A stretch of DNA of 64,000 nt from a virus: IMG/VR virus record IMGVR_UViG_3300007512_001108, positions 10,682-74,681 of that record. One strand, 5' to 3'. This document shows positions 22,510 to 64,000 of the stretch, one piece after another. The notes under the pieces are model-generated. The model was not told where the DNA came from. It saw only the letters and a program-made list of their open reading frames with translations, and made no database searches. The translations under genes and the position numbers were made by a program. Within the stretch, counting starts at the first letter, position 1, and the number at the start of each line of letters is the position of its first letter.

Positions 22510-23970
22510 TTAGGAGTTCAAACCGTGAAGGTTATCTACTCTAAAGATACGGTAGTATTGGTTGTTTCGGATTGCACCCTGAGTGTGTGGGTCAGAGTCA
22601 TTTACGAATGGGTTGTTTACCATTCCGTAACGAGTTTTAAACCCGATTTTTGGTTGGAAAGTGTTTTCCCCAACGGCACGAACCATTTGTAGTGGAACAT
22701 ATGGACAGTAGAACATACCAGCATCATACGGGCTAGTTCCACGATATCCTACACATACAAAGTCTTTTGCAAGTGTGGAAATACCAGTTCCTGAATATGG
22801 GTCAACATAAACTTTAATCTTACCACCACCAACTGTACCGACAAAAGTGTTACCTGTGTCATCTACATTTGCGACTGCTTGGTCACCACCAGAAAGTTGC
22901 ATCCAACCACTCATTGCAAGAGCGGAAGCAACATCTGCGGAACAAAGGATAAAGTTACCTTTTCCTCTACGAGTTTCTTTTGCAATAGTATTGCATTCTC
23001 GTTCGATTTGGAATTGAAGACCACGGAATCGTTCAGCACTCCATCGACCATCTGAATCTTGGTCTAGGTCATAAATACCACCAAGTGCGGTTGCGGATGT
23101 TGAACCTGCAGCGGGTGCGGCAGAGAAACCATCGTTAGCACCACGACCTGCGTAGTATAGGTCTTGCTGTTGGCAACCCAACTTAGCATTGATGTAGATT
23201 GTACGAACTACTTCTCGGTTAATTTCAGCAAGAATTTCGTTGCTAAGAATGTTAGCAAGTTCTGTTTCTGCATCCAAACCGTGGACTGCTTTCAAGTCCT
23301 GTGCGAGTTCAGTTGTATATTCTGCTTTCAACGCACGGGTTTTAGCAGCGACTGCTGTTCTTTCGATGCTGAATGCCATTTGTTGGAAACTTGATGCGTT
23401 CAAGTTTTCAGCGGCTGATGTTGACATTGCTGGGTTTACACCGTAATCAGCACCAACTGTACCACCACCTGTACCAACTGCACCTAATGTAATACCTTCG
23501 GAGAATAGTGGGTCACCACCGCCTCGGTTATTACCTGTACCTGTTGCTGCCCAACCACCGTGATTACCTGCTGAAGCACCACCGAATGATGTTCGTGCTT
23601 CGTTGTATAGTGCTTCGTCATATGGTTGACCATCATACTTAGCCTTCATTGCAAAGATAAGTCCTGTAGGACCTGTCATTGGTTGAACACCACATACATC
23701 GTATGCGATTAGGTTAGGCATTGCTCGTCTAACAAGTGAGATAAGAATTGGGTCGTATCCCTGCATGTTTGAGTTTGAGTTATTTGTAGCGAGTCCAAGT
23801 CCACCACCAACTGCGTTGCTGACTTCGTTAATTGCTACTTCTTGATTTTCCAATAAAATTGCAGTAACTCTCTTCTTATAAGTATCTTCAATCTTTGGCA
23901 TATCGTTATGCTCAATGATTGGCGACCACTTTTCTTGAAGTTGTTCTGCAGCGACTAAAGTAGGGTCCAT
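22510..23970 (-). CDS. gp23: Major capsid protein gp23
   Basis: LISLVRRAMPNLIAYDVCGVQPMTGPTGLIFAM, RALKAEYT.ELAQDLKAVHGLDAE.EL, FQPKIGFKTRYG. Confidence 0.99.
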   Translation of the reverse strand: MDPTLVAAEQLQEKWSPIIEHNDMPKIEDTYKKRVTAILLENQEVAINEVSNAVGGGLGLATNNSNSNMQGYDPILISLVRRAMPNLIAYDVCGVQPMTGPTGLIFAMKAKYDGQPYDEALYNEARTSFGGASAGNHGGWAATGTGNNRGGGDPLFSEGITLGAVGTGGGTVGADYGVNPAMSTSAAENLNASSFQQMAFSIERTAVAAKTRALKAEYTTELAQDLKAVHGLDAETELANILSNEILAEINREVVRTIYINAKLGCQQQDLYYAGRGANDGFSAAPAAGSTSATALGGIYDLDQDSDGRWSAERFRGLQFQIERECNTIAKETRRGKGNFILCSADVASALAMSGWMQLSGGDQAVANVDDTGNTFVGTVGGGKIKVYVDPYSGTGISTLAKDFVCVGYRGTSPYDAGMFYCPYVPLQMVRAVGENTFQPKIGFKTRYGMVNNPFVNDSDPHTQGAIRNNQYYRIFRVDNLHGLNS

Positions 23971-24042
23971 TGCATTTCTCCTCTGTTTGTTAAATTCTAA
24001 CTTTACTACTTGTTATAGTTTAATTAAAAACTGTTTGCGACT

Positions 24043-24050
24043 TATTTATA
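24043..24050 (-). promoter_or_regulatory. T4-type late promoter for gp23
   Basis: Intergenic AAGTATAAATA. Confidence 0.8.
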
Positions 24051-24062
24051 CTTTCTTGACAT

Positions 24063-25316
24063 TCAAGAGAGTTTGTTGTATGACGAATGTTTTGAGATTG
24101 CTCTCATATAATCTGCCATTTGTCCTTTTACTTCACCTTTACTTTCTTTTTCTGTTTCTTCTGTAAGTACAGTTTCTTCAAAGTTTGATGATTCAGGATT
24201 AGTTTTGTTGAAATATGATTCTTTAAGAAGATTTAATTTTTCTTTATATGTTTCTTCTGTATCATATTCGATACCTTCTGCTAGTGAACGAAGTTTTTCA
24301 ACTTCTGTGTCTACTAGACCCACACATACTTCTGTGAATGCTTTAGAACAAACATTTTCTAGAAGTTCTTTCTTTAATTCGATATTCTTTTCGATTTGCT
24401 CATTAAGTTGAGTTTCCATATCAGTAATCTTAGTTAAGGATGACTCAACAATATCATACTTTTCGTCTGGAATTTCAACATAGTGTTGTTCGAACAAATC
24501 TTTAAGACCATTAATGAAACTTTCAGAAACTTCTGAACGAATACCACTATCTACTGCTAGTTCGTTTTCTTTCATCCATTCCTCTACAACATAGTTTAGA
24601 TAATCATCTAATTTAGTTGTTAACTCTTCATTAAGTTTTTCAACTTCTTCTGTAAGAGCAGTTTCGTATTGTGTGTTAAGGTCTTCTTGAATTGCTTTAA
24701 CTTGTTCGTTAACAGCGGCTTCAAAGATAGTTGTTGCTTTGGTTCGGAATTCTTCACTTAGGTCTTCCCCAGAGAACAATGCAGATACTGCTTCTTTAGT
24801 ACCCTTCATTGTTTCTTTAGTAGCATCACCAGTCTTAGATGGTTTCATCTTTGGTTCTTTTGCTTTCTTTTTACCTTTAGGGGTAGGAGTTGCCTTTTTA
24901 CCTTCAGCATCTTGGTTATCATCGACATCTAGGATAGTTTCTGATTCGTCAATTTCTTCATCATCGTCTTTCCCGTTCTTGCCGTTTTTACCATTCTTAC
25001 CGTTCTTCTTTAACCAAGGGGGTAGTTTACCTTCATCGACTTCATCTTCGTCATCATCATCATCTTCGTCATCGTCTTCGTCTTCATTAGTTGATTTAGA
25101 TTTTGATTCTTTGACTTCATCTTCGTCATCGTCATCGTCATCATCTTCAGCATCATCATCTTCATTAGTTGCTTTGGATTTTGCTTCTTCGAGTTCGAGG
25201 TCTTCTAGAATTTCTTCTGCTACTTCTTCGGTTGTATCGTCAGCACTTTCTGAAATAGGTGCTGTGTCCCGTTCCAAAATTTCCCTTGCTACTTGAATTG
25301 CATCTTTATAGCCCAT
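24063..25316 (-). CDS. gp22: Prohead core scaffold gp22 with long acidic N-terminal extension
   Basis: LSEEFRTKATTIFEAAV, LDDYLNYVVEEWM.ENELA, ESFINGLK.LF..HY; position between gp21 and gp23. Confidence 0.93.
   Translation of the reverse strand: MGYKDAIQVAREILERDTAPISESADDTTEEVAEEILEDLELEEAKSKATNEDDDAEDDDDDDDEDEVKESKSKSTNEDEDDDEDDDDDEDEVDEGKLPPWLKKNGKNGKNGKNGKDDDEEIDESETILDVDDNQDAEGKKATPTPKGKKKAKEPKMKPSKTGDATKETMKGTKEAVSALFSGEDLSEEFRTKATTIFEAAVNEQVKAIQEDLNTQYETALTEEVEKLNEELTTKLDDYLNYVVEEWMKENELAVDSGIRSEVSESFINGLKDLFEQHYVEIPDEKYDIVESSLTKITDMETQLNEQIEKNIELKKELLENVCSKAFTEVCVGLVDTEVEKLRSLAEGIEYDTEETYKEKLNLLKESYFNKTNPESSNFEETVLTEETEKESKGEVKGQMADYMRAISKHSSYNKLS
24965..25190 (-). repeat. Coding tandem repeats in gp22: 2x KSK.TNE(D/E)n-EDEV and 4x KNG
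   Basis: Visible tcatcgtc/tcttcattagttg repeats and ccgttctt/ccgttttt/ccattctt 9-bp units. Confidence 0.8.
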
Positions 25317-25381
25317 TTGACTAACTCCTTTTAATTTCTTTGTATCTATCTATTAAAGATAAAAATTAACTATTATCCTAC

Positions 25382-25389
25382 TATTTATA
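25382..25389 (-). promoter_or_regulatory. T4-type late promoter for gp22
   Basis: GTATAAATA overlapping the gp21 stop codon. Confidence 0.65.
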
Positions 25390-26050
25390 CATTTCTAATT
25401 TTAGAGAGGAAGTTTTTGAACACATCTAACTTCTTTTCTTCCAACTCTTGTTTTGATTCCCTAGATGCTCTATTTATCATAGAACAATACGAATTTAAGT
25501 CCTGTTCTTTTAATATTCCATTATCCCAAATCCACGCTTTACCTTCCATAATGCCATTTACAAAGGCATCAGGTGCGGATGGGTCTGCAACAATATCGAT
25601 TGCAGAAAGCATAAAGTCTTTTTGAACTTCATTTATGCCATTTACTTGTTTGAGTGTTCCCATACCTCTAGAAGAAACACCTAATTTGACTCCACCCTCC
25701 ATTAGATTTTTTACAATTTTACCATATGGAGTTTCTAAAATCTTTGCTTTACCTATAATATTATCTCCATCTGCTTTTAATGATTCAACTAGATGAGATA
25801 CTCTTTCTAGATTTACTGTAGGTCCTTCTGGGTGACCTAATTCACCCATTGCTCTACCTTCTTTTACATAATCGTTTTGATATCTTTTTGCTTCTTTCAT
25901 AAGAACGGATTTTGGATATATTCTACCGTTTCTATTTTTTTGTTCAGATTGCATAAAAATACCTTCAATGTAGTATTCTTTTACTCCATTTTTTTTATCT
26001 TCTACAAGAAATTTAATATCTTCTGCGTGTTCTGTGATTAGTTTTAACAT
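25385..26050 (-). CDS. gp21: Prohead protease gp21
   Basis: YIEGIFMQSE..NRNGR.YP, GELGHP, GVSSRGMG, DIVADPSAPDAFV. Confidence 0.97.
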   Translation of the reverse strand: MLKLITEHAEDIKFLVEDKKNGVKEYYIEGIFMQSEQKNRNGRIYPKSVLMKEAKRYQNDYVKEGRAMGELGHPEGPTVNLERVSHLVESLKADGDNIIGKAKILETPYGKIVKNLMEGGVKLGVSSRGMGTLKQVNGINEVQKDFMLSAIDIVADPSAPDAFVNGIMEGKAWIWDNGILKEQDLNSYCSMINRASRESKQELEEKKLDVFKNFLSKIRNV

Positions 26051-26502
26051 TATGCTTCTGCTCTTTTTCGTTGTTTTTCTTTCTTCATCTGAACGGAGAG
26101 GTCACGAATCTTTTCTTGACTTGCAGCCATTTTTTCTTTTTCTTTTGCAATATCTAATTCAGCGCCTTCATCAACACCCGTTTCTTTTTCTTTGTCGGAC
26201 TTCCAGTTTTTATCCACATAATTATAGAATTCTTTCTTCTTATCACCTTCAAGTTTATCTGGTGCTGTTACTCCAAATTTTTTCAATGCTGATTTGAAAA
26301 ACTTTTGATATTCGTCACCATCATCATCGGATTCGTGTTGAACACTTTCATTACCATTGTTACAACCACATCCTTCGGACATTTCTTTTTTATCTTGGAT
26401 AGATTCTTCAATCTTCAAATACAAAGCATCAAAGATGGTTTCTGTTGCATCTTTATAGTTTCCTTCTTTGACATTATTAAGTAAATCTGTTAATTGAGCC
26501 AT
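26050..26502 (-). CDS. Probable prohead core protein (gp68 position)
   Basis: Charged protein between portal and protease; contains a YQKFFKSALKKFGV..KKKEFYNYVDKNW module. Confidence 0.5.
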   Translation of the reverse strand: MAQLTDLLNNVKEGNYKDATETIFDALYLKIEESIQDKKEMSEGCGCNNGNESVQHESDDDGDEYQKFFKSALKKFGVTAPDKLEGDKKKEFYNYVDKNWKSDKEKETGVDEGAELDIAKEKEKMAASQEKIRDLSVQMKKEKQRKRAEA

Positions 26503-26511
26503 CTCTATCTC

Positions 26512-27087: not shown

Positions 27088-27098
27088 TTGTGTTCTCC

Positions 27099-28643: not shown

Positions 28644-28665
28644 AATATAAAATCCTTAAAATAAG

Positions 28666-29318: not shown

Positions 29319-31370
29319 TTATCCACCAACTTCACTAAAATCTACACCTGTTTTTGTTGCAATGAAATTCAACTGAATATAGTTGATTGACCTTGCTGGC
29401 TTAATGTAAATATCTCCAACAAATTCGTTTCTATCTATTACTTCACCAGTGTTATTGGTTTCGTCACACACAACCTTGAAGTCGTAAATACCTCTTCGTG
29501 ACATAATTGTACGAAGGAAGGGTATTACCATATTTCTAAATTGTGCCCTTGTGAACTCATCATTAAATTCAAAGAGTAGATATTTTGAAGCAGTTGCAAT
29601 TGCTTTTTCAAGAACAATAAAGAGTCGTCTTACATTGATTCTATCGAATGCACTTGGTTTTGCTTGCATCGTCTTATCTCCAAACAATACTGTACCTTCG
29701 CCGGGGAAGGAAACTACTGAATTGACTTCTGATTTGTAGAGTTCATCACGGTGTGCTTTTCGTGGTTCGAATGCTAACTTAACAACTCCACGAATTTGAC
29801 CCCTATTGAATCCTGCGGGTGAGAACCACGCTTCTTGTTCTGTTTCTGTTCTTGCACAAAGTCCTGCAATATCACCGTTAAGTGGTACATATCGGAGAAC
29901 ATCATTGTAACGGTCAAGCATTACCTTGAATCCACTATCGAGTACTGCATATGAACTGCTCTTGTTTAGAGTATTGTTTCTCCAATCTCTAACAGTTGTT
30001 GCGGCTACACCTGCTGTTTGGTTCTGAACTAATCCTGCGGGGTCGCCAGAAGACTTAATGGGTGAAAGGAATGCAATGCAATCCTTACGCTTGTCACACA
30101 TATCAATGATTATTTTTTGTACGGTTGCGTCAGATGCTCCACCCAAGATGAGAGAAACATCTACTGATTCAGCATCTTCAAACTCTAAGAATGAAGTTAC
30201 AAGAGCGGCATTGGCGAGGTCATTTCCTCCCTGTGTATAGTCGTCTGCACTAACACCACCAGATAATCCCTGTAAACTCACAGCATTTCCTACGGGAGCA
30301 GTGAAGTTACCTGGCGCACCTCCAGAAAATCCACCCATATTTCGAGTAATTTCGGGGAATGTTGCTGTAATGTCTCCAGTACCAACACCCCCAATTGTGG
30401 CTGCGGCCCATATGTAACGAGACCTATCATTGATTACATCTTTATAGTAGTTTGGACTTCCATCGAAACCTCTTGCATCTGTTGCTTTTGATACACCTTC
30501 GAAGACTTCTAGAACTTCTCCTGCGTTTCCTGTCCATGTACCATCACCGTCAATGACTGCGATGTTCATTTCATCGTTTGTACCACCCGCAGCCGCACAT
30601 TGGGCACTTGTTGCAGGTGTTGTGTTAAATACCCTTGCATATCTACTTTCGACTTCGAATGTTGTTCCGATTGCTCTTGCAGAGTAGAGACCTGGTGAGA
30701 ATTTCAGTTCATTGCCGGGAGTGGAAGGATTTCCGCCCATTGAAACCCCAGATAGTGATTCTGTGACAGTATGAACATCTCCGTTGGAGAAAATAATTCT
30801 GTCTCCCTTAAAGAAGTCAATATGTCCATTTCCTGACCCCACTGCGGCAGCACTACTAAACCCACCAGAGACTGAAGTTTCACCAAGAGCGAGGGCCGCT
30901 GAAAGACCAAGACATTGATTATGTCCTGAACCACCACCTGTTCTACCGTTGTCGTCAAAAACAACTACACGAAGAGAATTGCCGGGTGCGCCTGGATACT
31001 TAGCAACAAATTCTGCCGCTCGGAGAGCATGGGCACCTGTTGCGGCATCAAATTGCTTTCTGTTCTTTATAATACCGTCTGCACCCGATGTGTTTGCATT
31101 TTTTGCTTTTGTACCCACTGAACGAACTACCTGTAGGTTATTTCCGTAACCCAAGAAGTTTGCGGCGGTGAACCACCAGTTATATGTTGCATCGTTTGGG
31201 TCACCAAATACTTGACGAAGATTGTTTTCGCTATCAACTAGAACTCTCTCATCAACTGGTCCCCACTGAAAACCACCTGCCATTCCTGCATTTGTTGTTG
31301 CAACTGCGGGAACAATTGTTGTCAAATCTCTTTCTGTGACATTTACTCCTGGACTAACTTGAAATCCCAT
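29319..31370 (-). CDS. gp18: Tail sheath protein gp18
   Basis: SPGVNVTERDLT, FQWGPV, WFSPAGFNRG, FDRINVRRLF, FEFNDEFTR, IKPARSINYI.LNF. Confidence 0.99.
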   Translation of the reverse strand: MGFQVSPGVNVTERDLTTIVPAVATTNAGMAGGFQWGPVDERVLVDSENNLRQVFGDPNDATYNWWFTAANFLGYGNNLQVVRSVGTKAKNANTSGADGIIKNRKQFDAATGAHALRAAEFVAKYPGAPGNSLRVVVFDDNGRTGGGSGHNQCLGLSAALALGETSVSGGFSSAAAVGSGNGHIDFFKGDRIIFSNGDVHTVTESLSGVSMGGNPSTPGNELKFSPGLYSARAIGTTFEVESRYARVFNTTPATSAQCAAAGGTNDEMNIAVIDGDGTWTGNAGEVLEVFEGVSKATDARGFDGSPNYYKDVINDRSRYIWAAATIGGVGTGDITATFPEITRNMGGFSGGAPGNFTAPVGNAVSLQGLSGGVSADDYTQGGNDLANAALVTSFLEFEDAESVDVSLILGGASDATVQKIIIDMCDKRKDCIAFLSPIKSSGDPAGLVQNQTAGVAATTVRDWRNNTLNKSSSYAVLDSGFKVMLDRYNDVLRYVPLNGDIAGLCARTETEQEAWFSPAGFNRGQIRGVVKLAFEPRKAHRDELYKSEVNSVVSFPGEGTVLFGDKTMQAKPSAFDRINVRRLFIVLEKAIATASKYLLFEFNDEFTRAQFRNMVIPFLRTIMSRRGIYDFKVVCDETNNTGEVIDRNEFVGDIYIKPARSINYIQLNFIATKTGVDFSEVGG

Positions 31371-33572: not shown

Positions 33573-34451
33573 CTATATTGTTGCTCCTAGTATATCAATG
33601 TATGGTGCGCCGCATATTCCACCTGCATCACCACTACCAAAGATGTAAACATTTGAATCTGCTGAGTATCCAGTAACTCTATCGGATGATGCACCAGAAG
33701 GACCAGTTACAGTTATATCAACTCTAGATAATGCACCTGTACCACCTTCGAATGTTGAACCAGTAGGACCAAAGATATAATCTACACCACCAGAACCACC
33801 GTAATTGAAAAATACTGATTTTGTTTTGAGTATGTTTCCAGAAGTTCTTCCTTCTCCGTAGATATTTGTCTTTGCTGTAAAGTTTAAAGTCCATGTTATA
33901 TTTCTTCTTGAATCAAAATCTCCTTCATAATCCTCTTCGGAATTTACTCCACTAAGAACAATAGGAATATCTTGTTTTTGGTTTAATTCATTTATATTAA
34001 TTGTTATATTAAACTCTGGAGTAAAGTATGGAAGTACTTGTTCTATAAATTGTAATCCGTCATCTGTGTTTCTTACCAGACAATAAACGGAGAAATCTAC
34101 ATTATATGGAACTTCTGAATAATTATATTTTCTCTGCCAGTTATCCCCCGAAACACCCATAACTTTTCTTTGCATCGTGTTTCTTTTTCTACCAGAATCA
34201 AAATTAATTCCCGTAATTTCAAAACCCAATCTTGGTAATGTCATTTCAACTTTTGTTTCATCAGAAAGTGAACTTGGTTGATTAATTCTAGCAAGAAATT
34301 TTTCTTTTGGTCCATACGACAATGGTAAGCGAATATATTCTTTTATTGTTCCATTACTATTATATCGTGCAATACGAATATCATTAAATAACGAACCAAA
34401 CGATATTACTAACTTCCGCAAAGAACTATGATAAAAATGAGAACCAAACAT
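33573..34451 (-). CDS. gp15: Tail sheath stabilizer/terminator gp15
   Basis: FYH..LRK.V..FG.LFN.I, PLSYGPKEKFLAR, LPR.GFEI, EQVLPYF.P; Gly/Ser/Thr-rich C-terminal extension. Confidence 0.95.
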   Translation of the reverse strand: MFGSHFYHSSLRKLVISFGSLFNDIRIARYNSNGTIKEYIRLPLSYGPKEKFLARINQPSSLSDETKVEMTLPRLGFEITGINFDSGRKRNTMQRKVMGVSGDNWQRKYNYSEVPYNVDFSVYCLVRNTDDGLQFIEQVLPYFTPEFNITININELNQKQDIPIVLSGVNSEEDYEGDFDSRRNITWTLNFTAKTNIYGEGRTSGNILKTKSVFFNYGGSGGVDYIFGPTGSTFEGGTGALSRVDITVTGPSGASSDRVTGYSADSNVYIFGSGDAGGICGAPYIDILGATI

Positions 34452-36555: not shown

Positions 36556-38415
36556 TTATTTACCACCGCCAGATTCTTGGGCTATTCCAGAACCTGGGTC
36601 AAATTTAGAACCACTCGGTACACCAGTTCCACTTTCAAATCCTGAAACTTTACCTTCATCAATTCCACTTGCAGTTAGGTGTATTTCGGAAATCTGTGTA
36701 TATGATTGACCATCAGCAGTACCTGCTGAATCTACTTCACATTCTGCGAGAAGAACATTTTCTGTTAGATTATTTCTGAATGTCCAAACATCTTGATATA
36801 GTGCATAAATATGACCACCAGAAAATCCTACACAATTTCCCAAACAATCTTGAAGGATAAAGTTTCCTCCAGTACCAGCAGTTCCTCCTAATGTTTCTAG
36901 ATAAGAAACATGTTCGGAAAGTCTTTGAACCGTAATGTCATTTGGAGATAAACAAAATCCAGTTGTATGTGTTCCGTGGAAACTAGGTGCGCCGTGACCA
37001 AGACTACCGTGAGGTCCGAAAAGATTTGGGAAATCTCCACTGTTTGCACTACTTCCACTTAGACCAACCAATCCCATATATTCTTTGCGGGATTGTCTAA
37101 ACTGTGCCTGCTTTGTTGATAACTTTTGTGTATCAGACATAAGAGTACCACCTGTACAGGATACTTGATAAACTCCAGCACCATCAAATCCTTCAACATA
37201 TCCATTCTCATAATCAAATCCACCAGTAGCATTTCCAGTCAAAATAATATCTCTGACACCTAATACTTTATTCGTTCCGTCCCAATATGTTACATTTGCT
37301 TTTAATCTTTCATAATTATCAACAGAGAATAATGCACAACCACTTGGTCCATTAAATCTCATCAGTGCAAGTGTGGATTGGTTATCCATAGTTGCTTGAA
37401 TTCCAGCAGTAACATAGGTTGCTCCAGAGAATCCTCTACAAACCGTACCACCCGATGGTCCCATTTGTAGATGGAAGTCATCAATAAATCCACTAAATGC
37501 CAATGCACCACTTTGACCTGCACCAATAGAAAGTGGTTGGTCGGTACGAAGCAATTCATTTATCACTCCTGAACTAATTCCAGTTTCATTTCTGGTATTA
37601 TCATAATAAGGAATGACTTCAGAAACATTACTACCATACCATCTACTCTTATAAATGATTGCAACATGATGCCATTTGTTTATCACTGGAACTCCAGCAG
37701 TAACAGTTATAGAATGTGCCCAAGCAGTCGGAGTATCTCCCATATTATTAAAATCAAATTTTAATGAAGTGCTACCATTGTCATAATATAGTTTCCAAGA
37801 ATTTCCTGTTCCACCTGCGGCACTACTTCCGTGCATTGCTAAAATTTTATCAGCAGATGGTGTAGCAGTAAGGTAAAAATACATTTGTAATAAAACATCA
37901 CCACTATATCCACCACTAACTCCTGCACCCGATGCACCAGAACCACCACCAATATGTCCACCTGGTCCTGCAAGTGTTAAGCCAGGAATATCATGTAGGA
38001 GAAGAACACCACCAGTTGTTCCAGAGTCAAGACCCTTGAATTTGACAGATGATGTTCCAAATTTCTTTATTGCACGGTCATAGACAGGTTTTGTTGAATT
38101 ACCTCTATTTCTTGTTTCTACTGTTGTTACATTTTGATATACTATTTCGTTCCAACCATATTTTCCACAACCAGTAATACCGGCAGTTAGTCCTCCAGTA
38201 CAACCTGTTCCCATACTACCTGTTTGCATGTGTATTTTTTGTTCGATTCTTGGGTCTGTTCTTTTCTCATTGAATGTTGGAGGATTACCCAAAGTGGATT
38301 CTGGAACTACGACAACAGATTGACCAGCAACCAATATATCTTCTGTAGATATTCTTTCGTCTAATATATTGACTACTTTTCCGTTTGAATCTAAAATTAC
38401 ATTTTTATTTGCCAT
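36556..38415 (-). CDS. Virion protein with a LamG/concanavalin-A-like domain
   Basis: KKFGTSS..F, NKWHHVAI, LSIGA, FSGFIDDF and LMRFNG are typical phage LamG motifs. Confidence 0.7.
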   Translation of the reverse strand: MANKNVILDSNGKVVNILDERISTEDILVAGQSVVVVPESTLGNPPTFNEKRTDPRIEQKIHMQTGSMGTGCTGGLTAGITGCGKYGWNEIVYQNVTTVETRNRGNSTKPVYDRAIKKFGTSSVKFKGLDSGTTGGVLLLHDIPGLTLAGPGGHIGGGSGASGAGVSGGYSGDVLLQMYFYLTATPSADKILAMHGSSAAGGTGNSWKLYYDNGSTSLKFDFNNMGDTPTAWAHSITVTAGVPVINKWHHVAIIYKSRWYGSNVSEVIPYYDNTRNETGISSGVINELLRTDQPLSIGAGQSGALAFSGFIDDFHLQMGPSGGTVCRGFSGATYVTAGIQATMDNQSTLALMRFNGPSGCALFSVDNYERLKANVTYWDGTNKVLGVRDIILTGNATGGFDYENGYVEGFDGAGVYQVSCTGGTLMSDTQKLSTKQAQFRQSRKEYMGLVGLSGSSANSGDFPNLFGPHGSLGHGAPSFHGTHTTGFCLSPNDITVQRLSEHVSYLETLGGTAGTGGNFILQDCLGNCVGFSGGHIYALYQDVWTFRNNLTENVLLAECEVDSAGTADGQSYTQISEIHLTASGIDEGKVSGFESGTGVPSGSKFDPGSGIAQESGGGK

Positions 38416-58064: not shown

Positions 58065-58091
58065 TTAATATATTTCCTTAGAATCTATGTA

Positions 58092-60707
58092 TTATATATG
58101 CGTTAAATTTGGACTTCCAGAAGTACTTCCGTAAGGAACACTATAATTATTTGAGTCTGAACTAGAACCTCCGTAATATAACGAATCTGAAGATGGGTCA
58201 GAATGGAAGTGCATTCCAACTGCCATTTTTAAGAAGGTTTTTAGTGGTACTCTATCGAAAGACATTCCTGAATCTATACCAAGAGTCCAACCCCCTGCAA
58301 TATATTGTCCACTAAATCCTCTTGTGTTTGGATGATGATATACTTCCCAATAGTTATATGCCGTTGCTCCTGCACAAATCCCTGCAAGACCTGTTGCTCT
58401 ATAAAATTCTTGTGCGGCGGTATAACCTTCTGCACCCGCTGTTCCTAGAGGAAGTTTTCTTGTATCGTGCTGGATAAGTCCTGCCAAAGTTGTTCCGTCT
58501 GTCAATGATTCAGATACAATTCCATTTCCTTCTAGAATAGTAATAATTTCAGCAGTTAGTCCATTTCCGTTTGTTTGCCCAACCAGTTCACCAAACTCTC
58601 CTCCCGCAGAGGGACCACACCAACCACTTGGAAACATTTCTGGTGTGCTTCGAAGATGCATAACACCAATTGTCATTCCTGCTGTTCCTTGATATACATC
58701 CCACGACAATACTTCTCCACTTGCACCCGATGTATCACCACTAACCTGAATACCAACAGGAAAACTTCCAGCAGTTAAACTTGGTCCTCGAACAATGAGT
58801 TTACCACCAGTATCTCCATAACAATGATAGTCGGTTGTTGAGCCAGGATTATATCCGAAAAAATATAAATCTCCTGTTGCACTCGCATTTCCATTCTCAC
58901 TTCCTCCAGTAAAGGTAGTTTCACCATTAACCTCCTCAACACCAGTTATTAAAGTTATTGCTGTATTGCTAGCAGTTCCACCAGCAGTTTGAGTTAGTGT
59001 AAAATTTGCTTGTGTTTCATCAGCGATGGTATCGACAGTAGTGGGAAAAATTGTCATATCTAATTCGCCCGCGTCAATTGCGGTTTTACAAGAGATGTAG
59101 AGAGCCTGTGTGGCCTTTCTGACGCTATTAATATCTCTGGTGTTGACTATCCATGTGTGGTCACCTCCATCGGAAGAAGTATCTCCAAAGTTCTTAGTAG
59201 GGTCTGTGTGGAAGGTTACAGTTGAACCATCAGTATTTCTCAATATAAAATTTGTACCATCCTCATCGTCCAAAGCCGCAGTTCCTATAATTGTCGCTGT
59301 AGCGTATGTACTCGCTGCACCAGACCATCCATGCACCGAACCAGGTCCGCTTGCGGGGGAGGTTACTCCATTACTTCTAAGGTCAGTTGTTGATAGCGGT
59401 CTGTAGGGAGAGTAGTGTCCAACAATTGGCATTTCATATGATTGATGTTCACCATGAAACGGTTGGTCACTTTGTAATGATTTTAAAATAGAAACATCAC
59501 CAAATACTTTTAATCCTGCTGGATGAATAAGTTTCTTTAAAACTTCTTTATATGTGTCTAGAGATATTTCTGCCTTTAAAACATAGGAATAATTTTGATA
59601 ATAGTTTCCGTCTTGAAGTTTCTTATTAGAACTTAATTTACCATCATTATTTTTATAATATCCCGGATATTTAATAAGTGCTTGTGGATTCATCGTTGCG
59701 GTTGCTGTACCATCCCCTCCTTCAAAAACTACATTTAAAGGTTCTACATAATTAACTCCAGCATTATCAACAACTGCTCCTTTAACTGCACCCTTTAGAG
59801 AAACATCTAAAACTCTACCAGTTCCCCCTTCCCCCATATCTGTGGTATTTTTTTCAAAGTTTTCGTCTGGTTTTGCTTTATCACCTATACTGTAACCACT
59901 TCCTTCATTTGTTATTACTAAATTAGAAAAAAGTCCATATATAATTTCTGTAATTTCTGTACCATCAGATAATATACACCTTAGAGTTTCTCCAGATTTA
60001 AATTCTCCAACAATATTATTAATAAACAGTTCAGTAACTTCGTGGGCACCAATATTATATTGATGCACTCTATAACATCTAGCGGACGCATCTACTTGTC
60101 CTGTACCCGAATTAATTTGTTCTATTTTTGTATTTGCTATTTTAAAATTTTTAGTACCATTTAAACTAGTAACTTTAATTGCTTCTTCTTCTGTCCATTG
60201 TCCTGACGATGCTCTTAATATATCCTTTTTTGGATAATAGAAATCACAAGCACTGTCATATAATAGACGAAACAAAAGTTCATATGATTTTTCAGAACCT
60301 TTTGTCTGATAAAAATCTTTTATATTTTTTAACATAGTTGTTTCATCAACTACATTTCCGTCTATGTCTGTTGCTAACTTTTCTGGAAAGTTTAAAAGAA
60401 ATTGTCTTTTAAAATGAATAACATATTCATCAATGGTTTTATCAATATCAGAAATGTCTTGGAGCATTTGTGTTCTACCAAATACATTTACTTTTTGTTC
60501 CAACCACTCATAATACGCTTGGATAAAATTTACAAATAATGGATGTTCTGCTTCAACAAATTCTGGCAACTGATTAGGAATGTGGGGTGATATTCCATCA
60601 ACAACTGAAAGTGTTTCTGGTGCAAATGTTGCACCAATCTTTTCTTCTAGAGAATAATAAGGACCAGTTCCTGTATCACCTATTCTTAGTAGCAGACTTA
60701 ATGACAT
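58092..60707 (-). CDS. gp7: Baseplate wedge subunit gp7-like
   Basis: QLPEFV...HP.FV.F..AYYEWLE, IKDFY..KGSE.SY..LFR.LY, LQDGNYYQNYSYV, LIHPAG. Confidence 0.85.
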   Translation of the reverse strand: MSLSLLLRIGDTGTGPYYSLEEKIGATFAPETLSVVDGISPHIPNQLPEFVEAEHPLFVNFIQAYYEWLEQKVNVFGRTQMLQDISDIDKTIDEYVIHFKRQFLLNFPEKLATDIDGNVVDETTMLKNIKDFYQTKGSEKSYELLFRLLYDSACDFYYPKKDILRASSGQWTEEEAIKVTSLNGTKNFKIANTKIEQINSGTGQVDASARCYRVHQYNIGAHEVTELFINNIVGEFKSGETLRCILSDGTEITEIIYGLFSNLVITNEGSGYSIGDKAKPDENFEKNTTDMGEGGTGRVLDVSLKGAVKGAVVDNAGVNYVEPLNVVFEGGDGTATATMNPQALIKYPGYYKNNDGKLSSNKKLQDGNYYQNYSYVLKAEISLDTYKEVLKKLIHPAGLKVFGDVSILKSLQSDQPFHGEHQSYEMPIVGHYSPYRPLSTTDLRSNGVTSPASGPGSVHGWSGAASTYATATIIGTAALDDEDGTNFILRNTDGSTVTFHTDPTKNFGDTSSDGGDHTWIVNTRDINSVRKATQALYISCKTAIDAGELDMTIFPTTVDTIADETQANFTLTQTAGGTASNTAITLITGVEEVNGETTFTGGSENGNASATGDLYFFGYNPGSTTDYHCYGDTGGKLIVRGPSLTAGSFPVGIQVSGDTSGASGEVLSWDVYQGTAGMTIGVMHLRSTPEMFPSGWCGPSAGGEFGELVGQTNGNGLTAEIITILEGNGIVSESLTDGTTLAGLIQHDTRKLPLGTAGAEGYTAAQEFYRATGLAGICAGATAYNYWEVYHHPNTRGFSGQYIAGGWTLGIDSGMSFDRVPLKTFLKMAVGMHFHSDPSSDSLYYGGSSSDSNNYSVPYGSTSGSPNLTHI

Positions 60708-60723
60708 TTAAAATTCTCCTATA

Positions 60724-62625
60724 TCAATATCCACTACTGGTACTGGTTGATTTATTTTCTATAGTATTGGTTGTTCCTACTACAGATTCTTTTCCAAGTT
60801 CTTCTACTTTAATATTTACAGAACTTGAATTAGCAGAATCTATCATTAATAATGTATTTCTACTAGAAATTACATTTAAATCTTTTGATTCAATTGTAAA
60901 TTTTATAAGGGAACTGCTATCGTCTTGTACGGGATTAAAAGATACCAAATTTATAGAACCATTGACATAATCTACTGTTCCGATTTTAGTTATTTTAATT
61001 CTAATTCCTGCCTGTGAGGTGGTATAAATGTTTAGATTTCCATTACCATCATCTAAAATATAAGAATCAACAGAAATTCCATTAGAATCTTTATATTTAA
61101 ATCTGGAACTTGAAACCGTGCCTTCCATATGACCGTCATGCGGGTGATAAATTTCATTATAGAAATTAATTATATAACCTGCTGCCGAACCGATATTAGG
61201 TTCTAATTTTTTTTGTAGTTTTATTTTAGTTTCGTTACTGACTATAGAATCATCCAACCTATCGATTCTTGAACATAATTTTGAATAATAAAAATTATTT
61301 CCAAACTTTTCTAATTTAGAATCCGAATAATCCAATATATCAAGTTTTATTGCTGTCGAAAGTGTTTCTGCACTTATTATAGTTTTAGAAGGGTCAAATG
61401 TAACGGTAGAATCTACTAATATATAAAGATAATCTGGGTCAATTATTTCTGGCAGAATACTTACAATATTATTTCCTTTAAGTATACTAGTTTTAATTGA
61501 TTCTTTTTCTGCAATACTCAAAGATTCTCCAGAATTTGGTTTAATTGAAATAAACACTTTTCCATATTCTGGTGGAATTGCATCTTCTCCTCCATAAACA
61601 AACACAGATTCAACATCACCGTACTGTGTTGCTATAAGAGTTTTATAATCTTCTGTTGTAACTGCTCGGTCTTGTGCTTGATATGAACGAGGAGCATAAT
61701 ATTTAATAGAACTAACTGTTTCTGGAGAACCACCACCTTGAGAGTATGATGTCACATCTACATTTGCATTTGCATCTCCGAGTCCAAATGACCTTCTACT
61801 ATTTCTAACATCATACTTTCCTATGTTATTTGCACCAAATCCAGCCGTTTCTAAATAACTTATAGTTACAACATTTCCGTGAGATGGTTTCTTTCCTACA
61901 ATACCATCTCCAAAATAAACTTCATATCTTCCATCTTCTACTTCCTGTAAGAAATAAACTTCAGAACCAGAAGTTAATCCTGTGTAGTTGGTTGATAAAT
62001 CCCAAGGAGTATAGTATCCTGTGCTATCCGTTGTAGAATTAGAAACCCTAATAAACAAATGAGAGGTATCAAAACTATTAGATGGGATAATAAACTTTGG
62101 ACTAGTTTCTGCGACATTATCAAAAAGAAAACTATTTGTTCTATAAGAACCCTCATATACAGTAGCAGTTGCTCCTGCTAATACACCACCAGAACCTCCT
62201 GTTGCTCCTATGGTAATTACATCTGTGTTTATAAAATTATAAGATTCGTTGTTTTGATTCGTTGCAGAAAATATTGTACCTATAGGAAGAAATGATGGTT
62301 CTGTCCCTGCATCATATGTGATATGAACTTCTGCTCTTGATGCTTTTGTTGAAGATGGTGTGTATCCTAATTCCTTTGCTCTAGAAACTACTGCGTTTCT
62401 TGTTACTGCACTATCCAAGAACATTTCATTTGCAACCATATTCGCATAGAATCCAGAATAGTGTGTATTGTATGATAGAACATCCAAAAGAACGGATAGT
62501 GCCGCACCATCAAAGTCATAATCTTTGAATTGGTTTTGACCTCTTAAATAGGTTTTTAGATTTTCTTTTATTTCAAAAAAGTCTAGTTCTGTTATTGGTG
62601 TATTTAAATTTCCGCCTGTTGCCAT
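60724..62625 (-). CDS. gp6: Baseplate wedge subunit gp6
   Basis: ELDF..IK.NLK.YL, DYDFDG, LLDVLSYNTHY, ANEMFLDSA, YEVYFGDG, QDRAVT..DY, PPEYGKVFI. Confidence 0.96.
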   Translation of the reverse strand: MATGGNLNTPITELDFFEIKENLKTYLRGQNQFKDYDFDGAALSVLLDVLSYNTHYSGFYANMVANEMFLDSAVTRNAVVSRAKELGYTPSSTKASRAEVHITYDAGTEPSFLPIGTIFSATNQNNESYNFINTDVITIGATGGSGGVLAGATATVYEGSYRTNSFLFDNVAETSPKFIIPSNSFDTSHLFIRVSNSTTDSTGYYTPWDLSTNYTGLTSGSEVYFLQEVEDGRYEVYFGDGIVGKKPSHGNVVTISYLETAGFGANNIGKYDVRNSRRSFGLGDANANVDVTSYSQGGGSPETVSSIKYYAPRSYQAQDRAVTTEDYKTLIATQYGDVESVFVYGGEDAIPPEYGKVFISIKPNSGESLSIAEKESIKTSILKGNNIVSILPEIIDPDYLYILVDSTVTFDPSKTIISAETLSTAIKLDILDYSDSKLEKFGNNFYYSKLCSRIDRLDDSIVSNETKIKLQKKLEPNIGSAAGYIINFYNEIYHPHDGHMEGTVSSSRFKYKDSNGISVDSYILDDGNGNLNIYTTSQAGIRIKITKIGTVDYVNGSINLVSFNPVQDDSSSLIKFTIESKDLNVISSRNTLLMIDSANSSSVNIKVEELGKESVVGTTNTIENKSTSTSSGY

Positions 62626-63014
62626 TATCTTGTTCTCTCTAATACCGTTGTTAAGGATAATACTTCTGGTTGATTTTGTATGGAAAATGAAATTGTAACT
62701 TCTATCGCATTATGACCGTGGTTCTCTACAACATCTACACCTAAAAGTTTAATTCTGGGTTCATACGCATTTAAAACATTTTCAATATGAGATTTTAAGA
62801 GAACACCTGTCATCGGAGTAATATTCTCAAATAACAATTCATTTACTCTACCCGAAAGAGATGGTTGAAATGGTCTTTCATATTTATTGGTTAATACCAA
62901 AGACCTAACAGATTTTTTTATTGCTTCTTCATTATACTTTAGCACCAAATCTCCAGACACTGGATGTGCATTGAAATCAAAATCTATATCGATGTATCTT
63001 TTACCTTCTATCAT
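62625..63014 (-). CDS. gp25: Baseplate wedge subunit gp25
   Basis: Y.DIDFDF..HPV.GD, AIKKSVR.LVLT...ERPFQP, LLFE, YEPR, LERTR. Confidence 0.95.
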   Translation of the reverse strand: MIEGKRYIDIDFDFNAHPVSGDLVLKYNEEAIKKSVRSLVLTNKYERPFQPSLSGRVNELLFENITPMTGVLLKSHIENVLNAYEPRIKLLGVDVVENHGHNAIEVTISFSIQNQPEVLSLTTVLERTR

Positions 63015-63033
63015 ATACTATATATACCTACTT

Positions 63034-63678
63034 TTATGATTTTTTGCCAGATTGTTCTTCTAATATAATTTCTATTATATTTCTAGAATTTTCTAAAAAT
63101 GAAGACATTTTAGTTTCATCTACTTCATCTGCTTTCGACCAACTACACCACTGACACATTACATATCCTATAATGTCTTTATTTTTTGTTAATGGAAGAA
63201 AAGAAAATGCTATAACATTACTTGATTGTAAGAATTTTTTACACCAAGAATCTTCTAAACTATCTACCATATGAAATTCTGCATTGTTTTCTTTAAGTAA
63301 ATTTAATCCATCTATACACATTGATATTGGTATGTCTTTCTTTCTGTATAATTCTGAAGAAGTACCTGTAGCAAGAGATTCGTGTGTAAGGGTCATTTTT
63401 GTCATAGAAATTCCATCTAAAAACTGACCTCCATTATGGAATTGAACAATTTGTGTTCTTGCACAATCTGTTTGTACTCTTAATTCTGTAAGACTTTCGT
63501 GTAATCTTGTATGAATATTACAATTAAATCCTTCTGGATAGTCTGTGGGTTTAGAAAATATAGAATGTTTTTTTATTTTATTATGATAAGGAAGAACAAA
63601 CATAATAAATCCTGCTATTATCGCTGCAAGAGCCATTCCTACTGTTACCAATGATTCGAATGTATCGAGATTTTGCAT
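63034..63678 (-). CDS. Single-TM plus GAF-like protein, candidate T4 gp t-type holin
   Basis: One hydrophobic helix (res. ~10-30) followed by a soluble domain (QFHNGG, FLPL....IIGYVMCQW); 214 aa; late motif upstream. Confidence 0.45.
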   Translation of the reverse strand: MQNLDTFESLVTVGMALAAIIAGFIMFVLPYHNKIKKHSIFSKPTDYPEGFNCNIHTRLHESLTELRVQTDCARTQIVQFHNGGQFLDGISMTKMTLTHESLATGTSSELYRKKDIPISMCIDGLNLLKENNAEFHMVDSLEDSWCKKFLQSSNVIAFSFLPLTKNKDIIGYVMCQWCSWSKADEVDETKMSSFLENSRNIIEIILEEQSGKKS

Positions 63679-63720
63679 TTTCTTTATTGTTCCTTAAAAA
63701 TTTATGAGGTGTGCTTTATT

Positions 63721-63728
63721 TATTTATA
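63721..63728 (-). promoter_or_regulatory. T4-type late promoter motif
   Basis: Intergenic TATAAATA upstream of the ATG at 63678. Confidence 0.6.
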
Positions 63729-63739
63729 ATCATTGGTTT

Positions 63740-64000
63740 CTAAAATACACTAATACTTTCGGATGATTTGTACTTATTTAATCCAATATCATCTGCTGTT
63801 GAACCGAACCATGTAAATGGAGTTGGTACTCCATTTCCTATACCAGTAAAAGTTGCAGTTGGAGTAAAGTCAAAGTTGGCTGCATCGGTGTAATTTGGAT
63901 TGGTTGCGGAAATATAGTTATACATTGAAAGGTGGTCGGTTGCACCAACAAATTTCTCACCAGCACTGTTTCCATAAAATGCGTTATTATAGTGCCTTGA
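63740..64000 (-). CDS. C-terminal end of a probable structural protein (partial)
   Basis: The frame is open to the window edge: SRHYNNAFYGNSAGEKFVGATDHLSMYNYISATNPNYTDAANFDFTP...; the ORF-track start at 63925 is an internal Met. Confidence 0.55.
   Translation of the reverse strand, partial: SRHYNNAFYGNSAGEKFVGATDHLSMYNYISATNPNYTDAANFDFTPTATFTGIGNGVPTPFTWFGSTADDIGLNKYKSSESISVF

Follow-up and report, generated by a model that had tools for sequence, protein, structure and literature searches.

Excess of G-x-[ST] motifs in fibre, baseplate and neck proteins of a T4-like phage lineage that carries a putative GT2-TPR protein glycosyltransferase

Genes and features of the window

We analyzed a stretch of 64,000 nucleotides from an uncultured marine T4-like phage (IMG/VR record IMGVR_UViG_3300007512_001108, positions 10,682 to 74,681), referred to as the window. 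For positions and assignments of its features see Table 1.

The window contains one part of a glycan cluster, with one gene each for DUF6165, SAM methyltransferase, GT32-like Gly_transf_sug and GT47-like proteins and with four ORFs of unknown family. Upstream, beyond the window, the cluster goes on with genes for two DegT aminotransferases, another GT47-like protein and a UDP-sugar dehydrogenase and with a gene combining a GT2 domain with TPRs, two genes away from that of a 1412-aa fibre. In the related genome G006 the ends of the cluster are kept (54% identity for the homolog of ORF 5050-5751, 56% for the GT2-TPR gene) and the interior genes differ. The NAD-dependent sugar epimerase/dehydratase of Table 1 is 56% identical in G006 and adjoins the GT2-TPR gene there. 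DNA-methylase-like genes are also present in the window.

The T4 late-promoter consensus TATAAATA precedes regA and the glycosyltransferase run. Further coding-strand copies lie a short way before gp23, gp22, gp19, gp18, the 1173-aa fibre (20 nt upstream of the gene) and ORF 63034-63678; the total for this word in the window is not above chance (11 vs 8.9). The late-promoter-like copy before regA and the glycosyltransferase run would speak for a role of the cluster in virion glycosylation as proposed below.

Table 1. Positions and assignments of the features discussed in the text.
Feature	Position	Strand	Basis or context
GT2-TPR gene, far end of glycan cluster, 4 kb upstream of window	G000:5323-6672, L086		Pfam GT2 + TPR domains
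Glycan cluster, part inside window	2..5751	-	Pfam scans
TATAAATA, T4 late-promoter consensus	6231..6238	-	41 nt upstream of regA + GT run
NAD-dependent sugar epimerase/dehydratase	6234..7151	-	Pfam PF01370, E 5e-61
GDP-mannose 4,6-dehydratase (Gmd)	8854-9861	-	Pfam PF16363, E 8e-121
Fcl-like epimerase/reductase	9858-10790	-	Pfam PF01370
gp23, major head protein	22510..23970	-	PHROG 138
gp18, tail sheath	29319..31370	-	PHROG 23
gp15, tail sheath stabiliser, 292 aa	33573..34451	-	PHROG 227
Gly-rich neck-region protein, 619 aa, ConA/Laminin_G_3 fold (LamG-like)	36556..38415	-	Pfam PF13385, residues 177-316
Tail-fibre protein, 405 aa	41230..42447	-	PHROG 4492
Tail or fibre protein, 1173 aa	42461..45982	-	PHROG 8763
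Tail-fibre protein, 1355 aa	46005..50072	-	PHROG 4492 C-terminal domain
gp8-like baseplate wedge protein, 843 aa	55533..58064	-	PHROG 438
gp7-like baseplate wedge protein, 871 aa	58092..60707	-	PHROG 17744
gp6, baseplate wedge	60724..62625	-	PHROG 219

Motif statistics

A preliminary description of this DNA had listed G-x-[ST] words in the gp15 tail, a gp6 loop (IGATGGSGGVLAGATA), gp7, gp8, gp14, gp18 and gp23, and we found these words as quoted. The recurrence that it described is a real excess over shuffled sequences. The structural proteins contain 299 G-x-[ST] where whole-protein shuffles predict 224 (z +5.7), and shuffling within windows of 10, 20 or 40 residues gave 1.28-1.31x with z between 5.4 and 5.7 (299 vs ~231). 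The sharpest word is G-x-[ST]-G, with 71 occurrences against 28-31 in the local shuffles (2.3-2.6x, z 7.5-8.5). The control spacings in the same proteins are flat (G-[ST] 1.03x, G-x-x-[ST] 0.99x), and N-x-[ST] shows no enrichment over whole-protein shuffles (0.87x). Cross-correlation around glycine revealed a short-range signal only, with Ser/Thr at +2 and -1 and Gly at +3 and +4, and no period-3 run. Codon usage is similar within and beyond the motif, which places the signal at the level of the protein rather than of a DNA word.

Gly makes up 10-15% of the motif-rich proteins, and Ser and Thr together 18%, so that an artefact of chance or composition has to be considered. We regard it as highly improbable, and it is contradicted by the excess that survives shuffles preserving composition within 10-40 residues (z 5.4 to 8.5), by the flat neighboring spacings and by the fibres of phages Mosig and Melnitz, which are equally Gly-rich and show no excess.

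The non-structural proteins of the window carry 41 G-x-[ST] for 37 expected from whole-protein shuffles. In the protein-by-protein count they stand at 1.06x and do not avoid the motif, and this counts against reading it as an acceptor site.

Proteins with and without an excess

The excess in the window is confined to seven proteins: three fibres, gp7, gp8, the gp15 tail and the 619-aa lectin-fold neck protein. The last is the densest carrier (30 G-x-[ST] vs 17.8, p 0.0005); across 35 homologs its motif positions are seldom conserved (mean 0.13) and the density is kept at 2.8-4.9 per 100 aa. The C-terminal tail of gp15 (residues 206-292, nt 33576-33836) holds eight words, GGSG, GPTG, GSTF, GGTG, GPSG, GASS, GYSA and GATI, and G-x-[ST]-[GA] occurs six times in gp15 for 1.2 expected (p 0.001). 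The gp15 tails of relatives with the GT2-TPR gene are likewise rich in G-x-[ST]; those of T4 and cyanophages are acidic, with no such motif. In gp7, 32 motifs face 19.7 expected (p 0.0015), and its orthologs behave alike (37 vs 21.5 in G006, 15 vs 9.5 in G014). For gp8 it is G-x-[ST]-[GA] that is in excess (11 vs 3.2, p 0.001); G-x-[ST] alone is not significant in this protein (20 vs 16.4), and the G006 ortholog has 27 for 16.

Among the fibres, whose modules have domains such as PHROG 4492 in common and whose counts are therefore partly non-independent, we counted 16 vs 8.1 in the 405-aa protein (p 0.002), 48 vs 32.9 in the 1173-aa protein (p 0.0025; G-x-[ST]-[GA] 18 vs 8.4, p 0.001) and 46 vs 32.1 in the 1355-aa protein (p 0.002). 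Three triplets in a row occur just once in the window, in the 405-aa fibre (GSTGNTGFT). Just beyond the window, the 1412-aa fibre reaches 81 vs 45, and 30 vs 8.6 for G-x-[ST]-G.

Capsid, sheath and gp6 are without statistical excess (gp23 9 vs 8.3, p 0.45; gp18 14 vs 12.4, p 0.36; gp6 9 vs 10.2), which counts against an acceptor-site reading. Nor are the counts significant in the VrlC-like 1745-aa protein (23 vs 21.7), gp14, the 918-aa protein, gp19, gp20 and gp13. The motif had been ascribed to most outer virion proteins. The excess covers the seven proteins named above and does not extend to gp23, gp18, gp6, gp14 or VrlC; since gp23, gp18 and gp6 lack an excess, a coat over most of the outer virion is unsupported. 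The sheath orthologs of relatives give 1.65x on counts that are not independent, and 13 of the 14 gp18 motifs lie in the stretch that BLASTP aligns to T4 gp18 residues about 119-345.

Alignments bore out the suggestion that the words fall in lineage-specific tails and insertions, namely the gp15 tail, an insertion in gp23 and the gp6 loop. The gp23 insertion of 24 residues (about residues 274-297, nt 23080-23151) holds GFS and GST; it is found in the window and partly in G006 and is absent from seven other T4-like phages aligned. The gp6 loop GATGGSGGVLAGAT (residues 139-154, nt 62164-62211) is a small lineage-specific insertion in the alignment with G006, G012, G014 and T4. In the two proteins modeled, most motifs fall in coil or in segments of low confidence; the models themselves are poor (mean pLDDT 53 and 63), which weighs against the acceptor-site reading. 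The gp15 tail has a pLDDT of 28-42, compared with 75-89 for the core.

Distribution among T4-like phages

The motif excess tracks the GT2-TPR gene, being present in all four T4-like phages with it and in none of eight without, although the bearers may form a single clade, in which case the contrast might reflect just one evolutionary event. The excess is restricted to this one lineage and is common to three related uncultured genomes. Orthologs in G006, with a gp15 46% identical to ours, reach 1.41x (z 5.6), and G-x-[ST]-G stands at 3.5x in G012 and 2.6x in G014. At 25-46% identity between orthologs, the motif positions turn over and the density is conserved. The eight isolates, which include HTVC008M, S-SKS1 and Melnitz (nearest by capsid protein) as well as two gmd-bearing cyanophages, show no excess (0.76-1.34x, abs(z) < 1).

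Each of the four related contigs spanning the region carries the GT2-TPR gene, which is 53-73% identical across aligned relatives of the clade. IMG/VR contains at least 529 matches to it, of which the best 80 have 47-62% identity, and a match was found neither among the T4-like isolates of the phage collection nor in four control genomes searched directly.

A cluster that includes the GT2-TPR gene could act on a target other than the virion, such as envelope polysaccharide or LPS of the host, a flagellin- or pilin-type host protein, or phage DNA, in which case the motif excess would have nothing to do with it. Sugar and glycosyltransferase genes of cyanophages are usually read as modifying the host cell surface (PMC9602691), DNA-hypermodifying phage glycosyltransferases are known, the window has DNA-methylase-like genes, and GmaR, discussed below, targets a cellular protein. 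The gmd/fcl-bearing cyanophages, however, have neither the GT2-TPR gene nor the motif, the excess is limited to virion proteins (1.06x in the non-structural ones), and the conserved neighbors of the enzyme family are G-x-T proteins. We consider a non-virion target quite improbable.

The GT2-TPR enzyme and its homologs

By its sequence the GT2-TPR product belongs to the GmaR/SunS/SgtA type, where the comparison with SgtA is one of architecture and not of alignment. A profile of the phage enzyme searched against the whole PDB matched GmaR (E 2.4e-10), SunS (E 1e-4) and, besides these, only a designed TPR protein. The likeness to GmaR and SunS is limited to the N-terminal ~100 residues of the GT domain, a point against the acceptor-site reading. 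GmaR of Listeria monocytogenes, a flagellin O-GlcNAc transferase with a GT2 domain followed by TPRs (PMC9638930), and SunS of Bacillus SP-beta, the sublancin S-glycosyltransferase, act on protein or peptide rather than on a lipid-linked glycan. Unlike the phage enzyme, GmaR has an extra anti-repressor domain and flagellin as its target, and the target of SunS is a Cys in a bacteriocin.

A close parallel is SgtA of C. difficile, a GT-A domain with four TPRs. This O-GlcNAc transferase of the collagen-like exosporium glycoprotein BclA3 transfers beta-O-GlcNAc to Thr and likewise to Ser of short synthetic peptides (DGATG..., DGASG..., ...IGPTGA...) (PMC7157674). In both enzymes TPRs follow an N-terminal GT-A/GT2 domain, and both are soluble and cytoplasmic. 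The SgtA acceptors resemble the candidate sites in having Thr or Ser at +2 of one Gly and directly before another (GPTG, GATG, GASG), and they are used when presented in short non-helical peptides. In the SgtA system, too, the enzyme gene adjoins a gene for a G-x-T-rich surface fibre, and other enzymes add further sugars. The T4-like phage differs in its large variable cluster (Gmd, Fcl-like, DegT, GT47-like, GT32-like, methyltransferases). BclA3 moreover carries long (GPT)n collagen arrays, whereas the phage words are mostly single or double and scattered over folded virion proteins of several folds. That the known substrates (BclA3 with its (GXT)n arrays, GmaR flagellin, the SunS peptide) are unlike such scattered single sites counts against the acceptor-site reading.

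Bacterial homologs of the enzyme are often paired with (G-x-T)n proteins. A (G-x-[ST])n-rich ORF lies within 8 kb in 35 of 80 loci and in none of 40 control regions drawn from these genomes (p 3e-8); where full flanks were available, it was within 1.5 kb of the homolog in 20 of 23 cases. In Tunturi_5, an unrelated jumbo phage, a homolog of 35% identity is encoded 4 kb from the sole (GPT/GAT)n fibre. Two megaphages with homologs of 27-31% identity have no motif-rich ORF within 20 kb, which again weighs against an acceptor site.

The pairing of the homologs in bacteria and Tunturi_5 with a single adjacent repeat protein also suits a narrower explanation, in which the enzyme modifies just one or a few fibres, such as the adjacent 1412-aa protein, and the words in gp7, gp8, gp15 and the 619-aa protein are an unmodified structural or compositional habit of Gly-rich loops in this lineage. 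The excess is strongest in that neighboring fibre, the shared fibre domains (PHROG 4492) and the lack of excess in gp23, gp18 and gp6 point the same way, and we take this explanation to be unlikely but serious. It does not readily accommodate the excess in unrelated folds (gp7, gp8, the gp15 tail, the lectin-fold protein), its recurrence in divergent orthologs despite shifting positions, or its lack in the orthologs of the eight enzyme-less phages. SgtA, furthermore, accepts single isolated sites in short peptides (PMC7157674).

Proposed mechanism

On balance we lean towards a reading in which G-x-[ST]-[G/A] serves as acceptor for a cytoplasmic protein O-glycosyltransferase that the phage encodes, the GT2-TPR enzyme. 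The earlier proposal of an acceptor for the phage glycosyltransferase cluster is thereby narrowed: enzyme type, bacterial pairing and the distribution among T4-like phages fit this one enzyme, whereas in ACG-2014f and DSL-LC03 neither gmd/fcl nor a glycosyltransferase cluster alone predicts the motif. The excess of G-x-[ST]-G, together with an enzyme of a type that glycosylates such sites encoded by a cluster of sugar genes, suggests that parts of the virion, namely fibre, baseplate-rim and neck proteins, are probably sugar-coated.

Glycosylation by virus-encoded enzymes has precedents. In chlorovirus PBCV-1, viral glycosyltransferases, methyltransferases and a GDP-sugar pathway (GMD, GMER) build the glycan of a virion protein in the cytoplasm. 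PBCV-1 is a eukaryotic virus whose glycans are N-linked at atypical Asn sites, and it is not known to have a GT2-TPR enzyme or a G-x-[ST] motif; in the present phage N-x-[ST] is not enriched. Glycosylation of the PBCV-1 capsid is the subject of a review (PMC4691112). Mycobacteriophage virions reportedly are glycosylated at the C-termini of capsid and tail-tube proteins (Freeman et al. 2023, cited in PMC12582341). There, as proposed here, a phage would decorate its virion proteins with glycosyltransferases of its own; host, phage family and enzyme type differ, and gp23 and gp19 of our phage are without motif excess.

We propose the following sequence of events. Late in infection, the GT2-TPR enzyme would add a first sugar, which by analogy with SgtA and GmaR may be a HexNAc, to Ser or Thr of G-x-[ST]-G words in loops and tails that are exposed and flexible. 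These would belong to the fibres, including the adjacent 1412-aa protein, to the baseplate rim (gp7, gp8) and to the neck (gp15 tail, 619-aa lectin-fold protein). In the next step the remaining glycosyltransferases, together with the methyltransferases and the GDP-sugar enzymes (Gmd, Fcl-like, the two DegT aminotransferases) could extend this sugar.

Motif enrichment in the structural proteins

We compared the number of candidate O-glycosylation sequons, G-x-[ST], in the structural proteins with the number expected from shuffled sequences (given as observed vs. expected). The motif words quoted in the preliminary description were found in the sequence. Relative to whole-protein shuffles the structural proteins contain 299 vs. 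224 motifs (z +5.7), and the controls suggested there, G-[ST] and G-x-x-[ST], were flat in the same proteins (1.03x and 0.99x). The ratio for G-x-[ST] in the non-structural proteins was 1.10x. No excess of the canonical N-glycosylation sequon N-x-[ST] was observed in the structural proteins (117 vs. 133.8, ratio 0.87). Since patches rich in Gly, Ser and Thr can inflate such counts, the test was rerun with local shuffles restricted to windows of 10, 20 or 40 residues. The G-x-[ST] excess was still 1.28–1.31x (z 5.4–5.7). The core word G-x-[ST]-G occurs 71 times vs. 28–31 (2.3–2.6x, z 7.5–8.5).

Cross-correlation showed Ser/Thr to be enriched relative to Gly at positions +2 and -1 only, and Gly at +3 and +4 only. 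These peaks define the motif unit as a short G-x-[ST]-[G/A] word rather than a collagen-like array. Collagen-like periodicity was rejected for the proteins of the window, as the period-3 signal ends at +3; in the structural proteins a G-to-S/T signal was lacking at +5 and +8, as was a G-to-G signal at +6 and +9. The long arrays of collagen-like (Gly-X-Y)n proteins are not shared by the motif-bearing proteins: in the structural proteins of the window we found no long Gly-X-Y array and a single run of three G-x-[ST] triplets. A cause at the DNA level was likewise rejected, because the codon use of Gly and Ser/Thr is equal within and outside the motif.

The motif had been described as spread across most outer virion proteins. 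Tested protein by protein this did not hold; seven proteins were significant, whereas gp23, gp18, gp6, gp14, VrlC, the 918-aa protein, gp19, gp20 and gp13 were not.

Structural proteins of the window with a significant motif excess
Protein	Motif	Observed	Expected
619-aa protein	G-x-[ST]	30	17.8
405-aa fibre	G-x-[ST]	16	8.1
1173-aa fibre	G-x-[ST]	48	32.9
1355-aa fibre	G-x-[ST]	46	32.1
gp7	G-x-[ST]	32	19.7
gp15	G-x-[ST]-[GA]	6	1.2
gp8	G-x-[ST]-[GA]	11	3.2

Location and conservation of the motifs

In gp15 of relatives that carry the glycosyltransferase, the tail consists of a conserved G-[IV]-[ST]-G-P-S-G-A-S block accompanied by floating G-x-T words. T4 and cyanophages have acidic gp15 tails that do not contain the motif. 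The gp15 of Pelagibacter phage Mosig (L081:20001-21599) is annotated with 532 aa, about twice the usual length, and its extension is not rich in G-x-[ST] (7 vs. 10). In the 619-aa family merely 13% of the motif positions stay in the same aligned column, and the motif density lies between 2.8 and 4.9 per 100 residues in 35 of 35 homologs. The motifs in this family thus turn over while their density is maintained.

Alignments bore out the expectation that some motifs lie in lineage-specific insertions. A 24-residue insertion in gp23 with GFS and GST is found only in this phage and, in part, in its uncultured relative G006, and the gp6 loop is an insertion as well. In gp18, 13 of the 14 motifs fall within the part that aligns with residues of about 119–345 in T4 gp18, a stretch that forms the outward-facing domains of the T4 sheath. 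The AlphaFold models of gp15 and the 619-aa protein are weak (mean pLDDT 63 and 53); the core of gp15 is confident, and its residues 206–292 have a pLDDT of 28–42. In both models 80% of the motif Ser/Thr residues are located in coil, which at this quality is a rough statement about coil and low-confidence regions.

The GT2-TPR glycosyltransferase

The candidate enzyme, referred to as GT2-TPR, combines a GT-A glycosyltransferase domain with tetratricopeptide repeats (TPRs). The GT2 domain was assigned by Pfam PF00535 (E 6.6e-8, residues 16–113). The motifs D45-T-G-S-x-D50 and D105-A-D-D108 are invariant across eight clade members, so that the nucleotide-sugar and DxD motifs are intact. The Pfam matches TPR_14, TPR_2 and ANAPC3 at residues 213–259 are all below the curated cut-offs, and designed TPR proteins match the enzyme at residues 196–320. 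A search of all PDB sequences with a profile of the eight clade members returned as sole enzymes GmaR (E 2.4e-10) and SunS, the sublancin S-glycosyltransferase (E 1e-4), with matches spanning just about 100 residues of the profile. The other PDB match was one designed TPR protein.

Positions of the main features (window coordinates, or coordinates of the whole contig G000, locus L086)
Feature	Position	Strand	Description
1412-aa fibre-like protein	L086:561-4799 (G000)	-	5.9 kb before window start; two genes from GT2-TPR gene
GT2-TPR gene	G000:5323-6672 (L086)		just outside window; 449 aa; Pfam GT2 residues 16–113, TPRs around 213–259
Replication genes interspersed with sugar genes	1-22425	-	sugar genes Gmd, Fcl-like enzyme, epimerase
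Structural module	22510-63678	-	in order: gp23, gp22, gp21, gp20, gp19, gp18, gp17, gp16, gp15, gp14, gp13, 619-aa protein, 918-aa protein, three fibres, 1745-aa VrlC-like protein, gp8, gp7, gp6, gp25

SgtA from C. difficile is a protein of 358 aa with a GT-A domain (residues 1–260) and four TPRs, and its gene adjoins that of the collagen-like protein BclA3 (PMC7157674). The enzyme transfers β-O-GlcNAc onto Thr and, just as well, onto Ser residues of short synthetic BclA3 peptides, and accepts single-site peptides with G-A-T-G, G-A-S-G and G-P-T-G contexts (PMC7157674). In GmaR, the O-GlcNAc transferase of Listeria flagellin, the GT domain is followed by TPRs (PMC9638930), the same domain order as in the phage enzyme. 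The GT-A domain, the TPR region after it and the neighbourhood of G-x-T proteins are thus features that the phage enzyme has in common with the SgtA/GmaR/SunS type. A published sgtA primer encodes MITISLCMI, which resembles TITLCMIVK of the phage clade over this short peptide.

The GT2-TPR gene is highly conserved and has at least 529 matches in IMG/VR, with identities of 53–73% among the aligned clade members and 47–62% in the best 80 loci. More than 3500 metagenomic proteins, many from Tara samples, are related to it at E 1e-5 or better. In profile scans of IMG/VR, the best 80 of the at least 529 matches belonged to the same clade and included no independent phage lineage. In-frame stop codons were observed within the matches of G001 and G002, the records behind loci L004 and L005 (one TAG each), and of G015 (one TAA); these could reflect an error in sequencing, a gene that is no longer intact, or recoding.

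(G-x-T)n proteins next to members of the enzyme family

We analyzed 80 bacterial loci from several phyla containing a GT2-TPR homolog (best 30–41% identical) together with 40 control regions drawn from the same genomes. In 35 of the 80 loci a (G-x-[ST])n-rich ORF lay within 8 kb of the homolog, compared to none of the 40 controls (Fisher p 3e-8); in 20 of 23 bacterial cases with full flanks the distance was at most 1.5 kb. The link of the enzyme family to (G-x-T)n proteins, seen in Actinomycetota, Bacillota, Chloroflexota and Pseudomonadota, carries the SgtA-BclA3 pairing well past spore formers.

In many Streptomyces genomes (among loci L195-L274) the homolog directly adjoins a secreted-looking (GPT/GAT)n-array protein. 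Two or three such array genes stand in tandem in the bacterial loci L195, L232, L248 and L254. These arrangements suggest that pairs of the SgtA-BclA type are widespread beyond spore-forming Bacillota.

Among phages, the unrelated jumbo phage Tunturi_5 encodes a homolog (35% identical) 4 kb from the sole (GPT/GAT)n ORF of its 309-kb genome, a fibre, which fits the pairing of enzyme and (G-x-T)n protein. Two megaphages with weaker homologs contain no motif-rich ORF closer than 20 kb to the homolog, a neutral result. In the phage studied here, the nearby 1412-aa fibre has 81 vs. 45 G-x-[ST] motifs, and its 30 vs. 8.6 G-x-[ST]-G words are a stronger excess than in any other protein of the genome. 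This neighbour fits the main rival reading, according to which one or a few fibres are the only substrates and the remaining motif words are unmodified. On the other side, the significant proteins of the window include gp7, gp8 and gp15 in addition to three fibres. The 1412-aa fibre itself has a short collagen-like GPxGPx N-terminus (GPGTPGPRGPEGPTGPAG) and repeated internal modules.

Distribution among T4-like phages

Eight T4-like isolates were tested: T4, the Pelagibacter phages Mosig and HTVC008M, the Methylophilales phage Melnitz and the Synechococcus phages S-T4, S-SKS1, ACG-2014f and DSL-LC03. None showed an excess of G-x-[ST]-G in its structural proteins (ratios 0.76–1.34, |z| < 1 in all). 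With all eight flat, the motif is rejected as a generic trait of T4-like structural proteins. No match to GT2-TPR was found in the genomes of Mosig, S-T4, ACG-2014f and DSL-LC03, and the T4-like isolates in the phage collection gave none either. All four of the related contigs covering the region carry the gene, as do five more long contigs; the related contigs without it all stop short of the region where it would stand. The contrast of four phages with the gene and eight without may reflect a single clade and is therefore weaker than its numbers imply.

Both ACG-2014f and DSL-LC03 carry gmd and are motif-negative; hence the motif is not predicted by sugar genes alone. As a predictor, sugar genes were not discriminating, PF01370 and gmd being present in motif-negative cyanophages. 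Uncultured relatives, on the other hand, do share the excess. Of these, G006 is complete (147 kb), syntenic with the present genome and 46% identical in gp15. Its structural block contains 235 vs. 167 motifs (z 5.6), with the excess in the same orthologs (gp7, gp8, VrlC, one fibre, gp15 and gp18). Relatives found via gp15 show an excess in gp15, the 619-aa family and gp18, counts that are not independent of each other. In the more distant contigs G012 and G014 the G-x-[ST]-G excess is 3.5x and 2.6x.

The ends of the glycan cluster, including GT2-TPR, are conserved between G006 and this genome, and the interior genes differ. Between positions 1-5751 of the window and 52618-69260 of G006 (L089-L090), the conserved genes are a homolog of ORF 5050-5751, an epimerase and GT2-TPR. 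Most interior GT-like ORFs are without a counterpart in G006, as in cassette-like O-antigen loci.

Proposed mechanism

These data are best explained if G-x-[ST]-[G/A] serves as acceptor site for the SgtA/GmaR-like GT2-TPR enzyme of the phage. Late in infection, the enzyme would prime Ser/Thr residues in exposed loops and tails of the fibres, the baseplate rim and the neck with a first sugar, which by analogy with SgtA and GmaR may be a HexNAc. The rest of the glycan cluster would then extend the primed glycan. A cluster directed at the host surface or at DNA is a less likely alternative. Our broader reading is tentative and somewhat on the doubtful side: T4-like phages of a very abundant marine and freshwater clade with no cultured member may carry, on the structures used for host recognition and on the neck, a coat of O-glycans at a defined four-residue sequon, primed by a conserved SgtA-like enzyme and finished by rapidly diversifying, cassette-like enzymes, so that related phages would show different glycans on the same sequon.

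To our knowledge, virion glycosylation in tailed phages is established for mycobacteriophages only. Their major capsid and tail-tube proteins are reportedly glycosylated on C-terminal extensions. This pattern is absent here: gp23 and gp19 contain 9 vs. 8.3 and 0 vs. 2.3 G-x-[ST] motifs and, unlike the mycobacteriophage type, have no Ser/Thr-rich C-terminal extension. Virion glycosylation in mycobacteriophages is known from work cited in PMC12582341 (Freeman et al. 2023). We found no report of sequon-type virion glycosylation in T4-like phages in the literature searched.

If true, the system would amount to a phage version of O-antigen variation that bears on adsorption, on stability, or on how hosts and grazers recognize the particles, and the T4-like clade concerned is common in ocean metagenomes. 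Given a defined sequon and a candidate priming enzyme, the "LPS-like" sugar gene clusters found in aquatic phages would gain a function that can be tested. The sequon would predict which virion parts carry the modification and, together with the enzyme, allow a simple assay on peptides. If fibres and baseplate carry glycans, this could alter host range, particle stability and the reading of viral metaproteomes, the latter because standard searches miss modified peptides.

Genome layout and accompanying genes

The contig belongs to a T4-like myophage and is 74.7 kb long; the window makes up its final 64 kb. All genes of the window are located on the minus strand, and the run of glycosyltransferase and methyltransferase genes extends past the window start. 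NCBIfam gave no informative names for the remaining genes of the glycan cluster. The word TATAAATA precedes regA and the GT run, and likewise six structural genes; its overall count is not above chance. In the region 5774-11445 the replisome genes 45, 44, 62 and regA are mixed with fcl, gmd, a GroES-like gene (7528-7872) and an epimerase gene, and regA is not followed by a DNA polymerase gene. Judged by the capsid protein, the closest isolate is Pelagibacter phage HTVC008M, with merely 53% identity. The gp46-like gene is flanked by two N6/N4 DNA-methylase-like genes (12936-14540 and 16246-16992), the first of which is a weak Pfam match.
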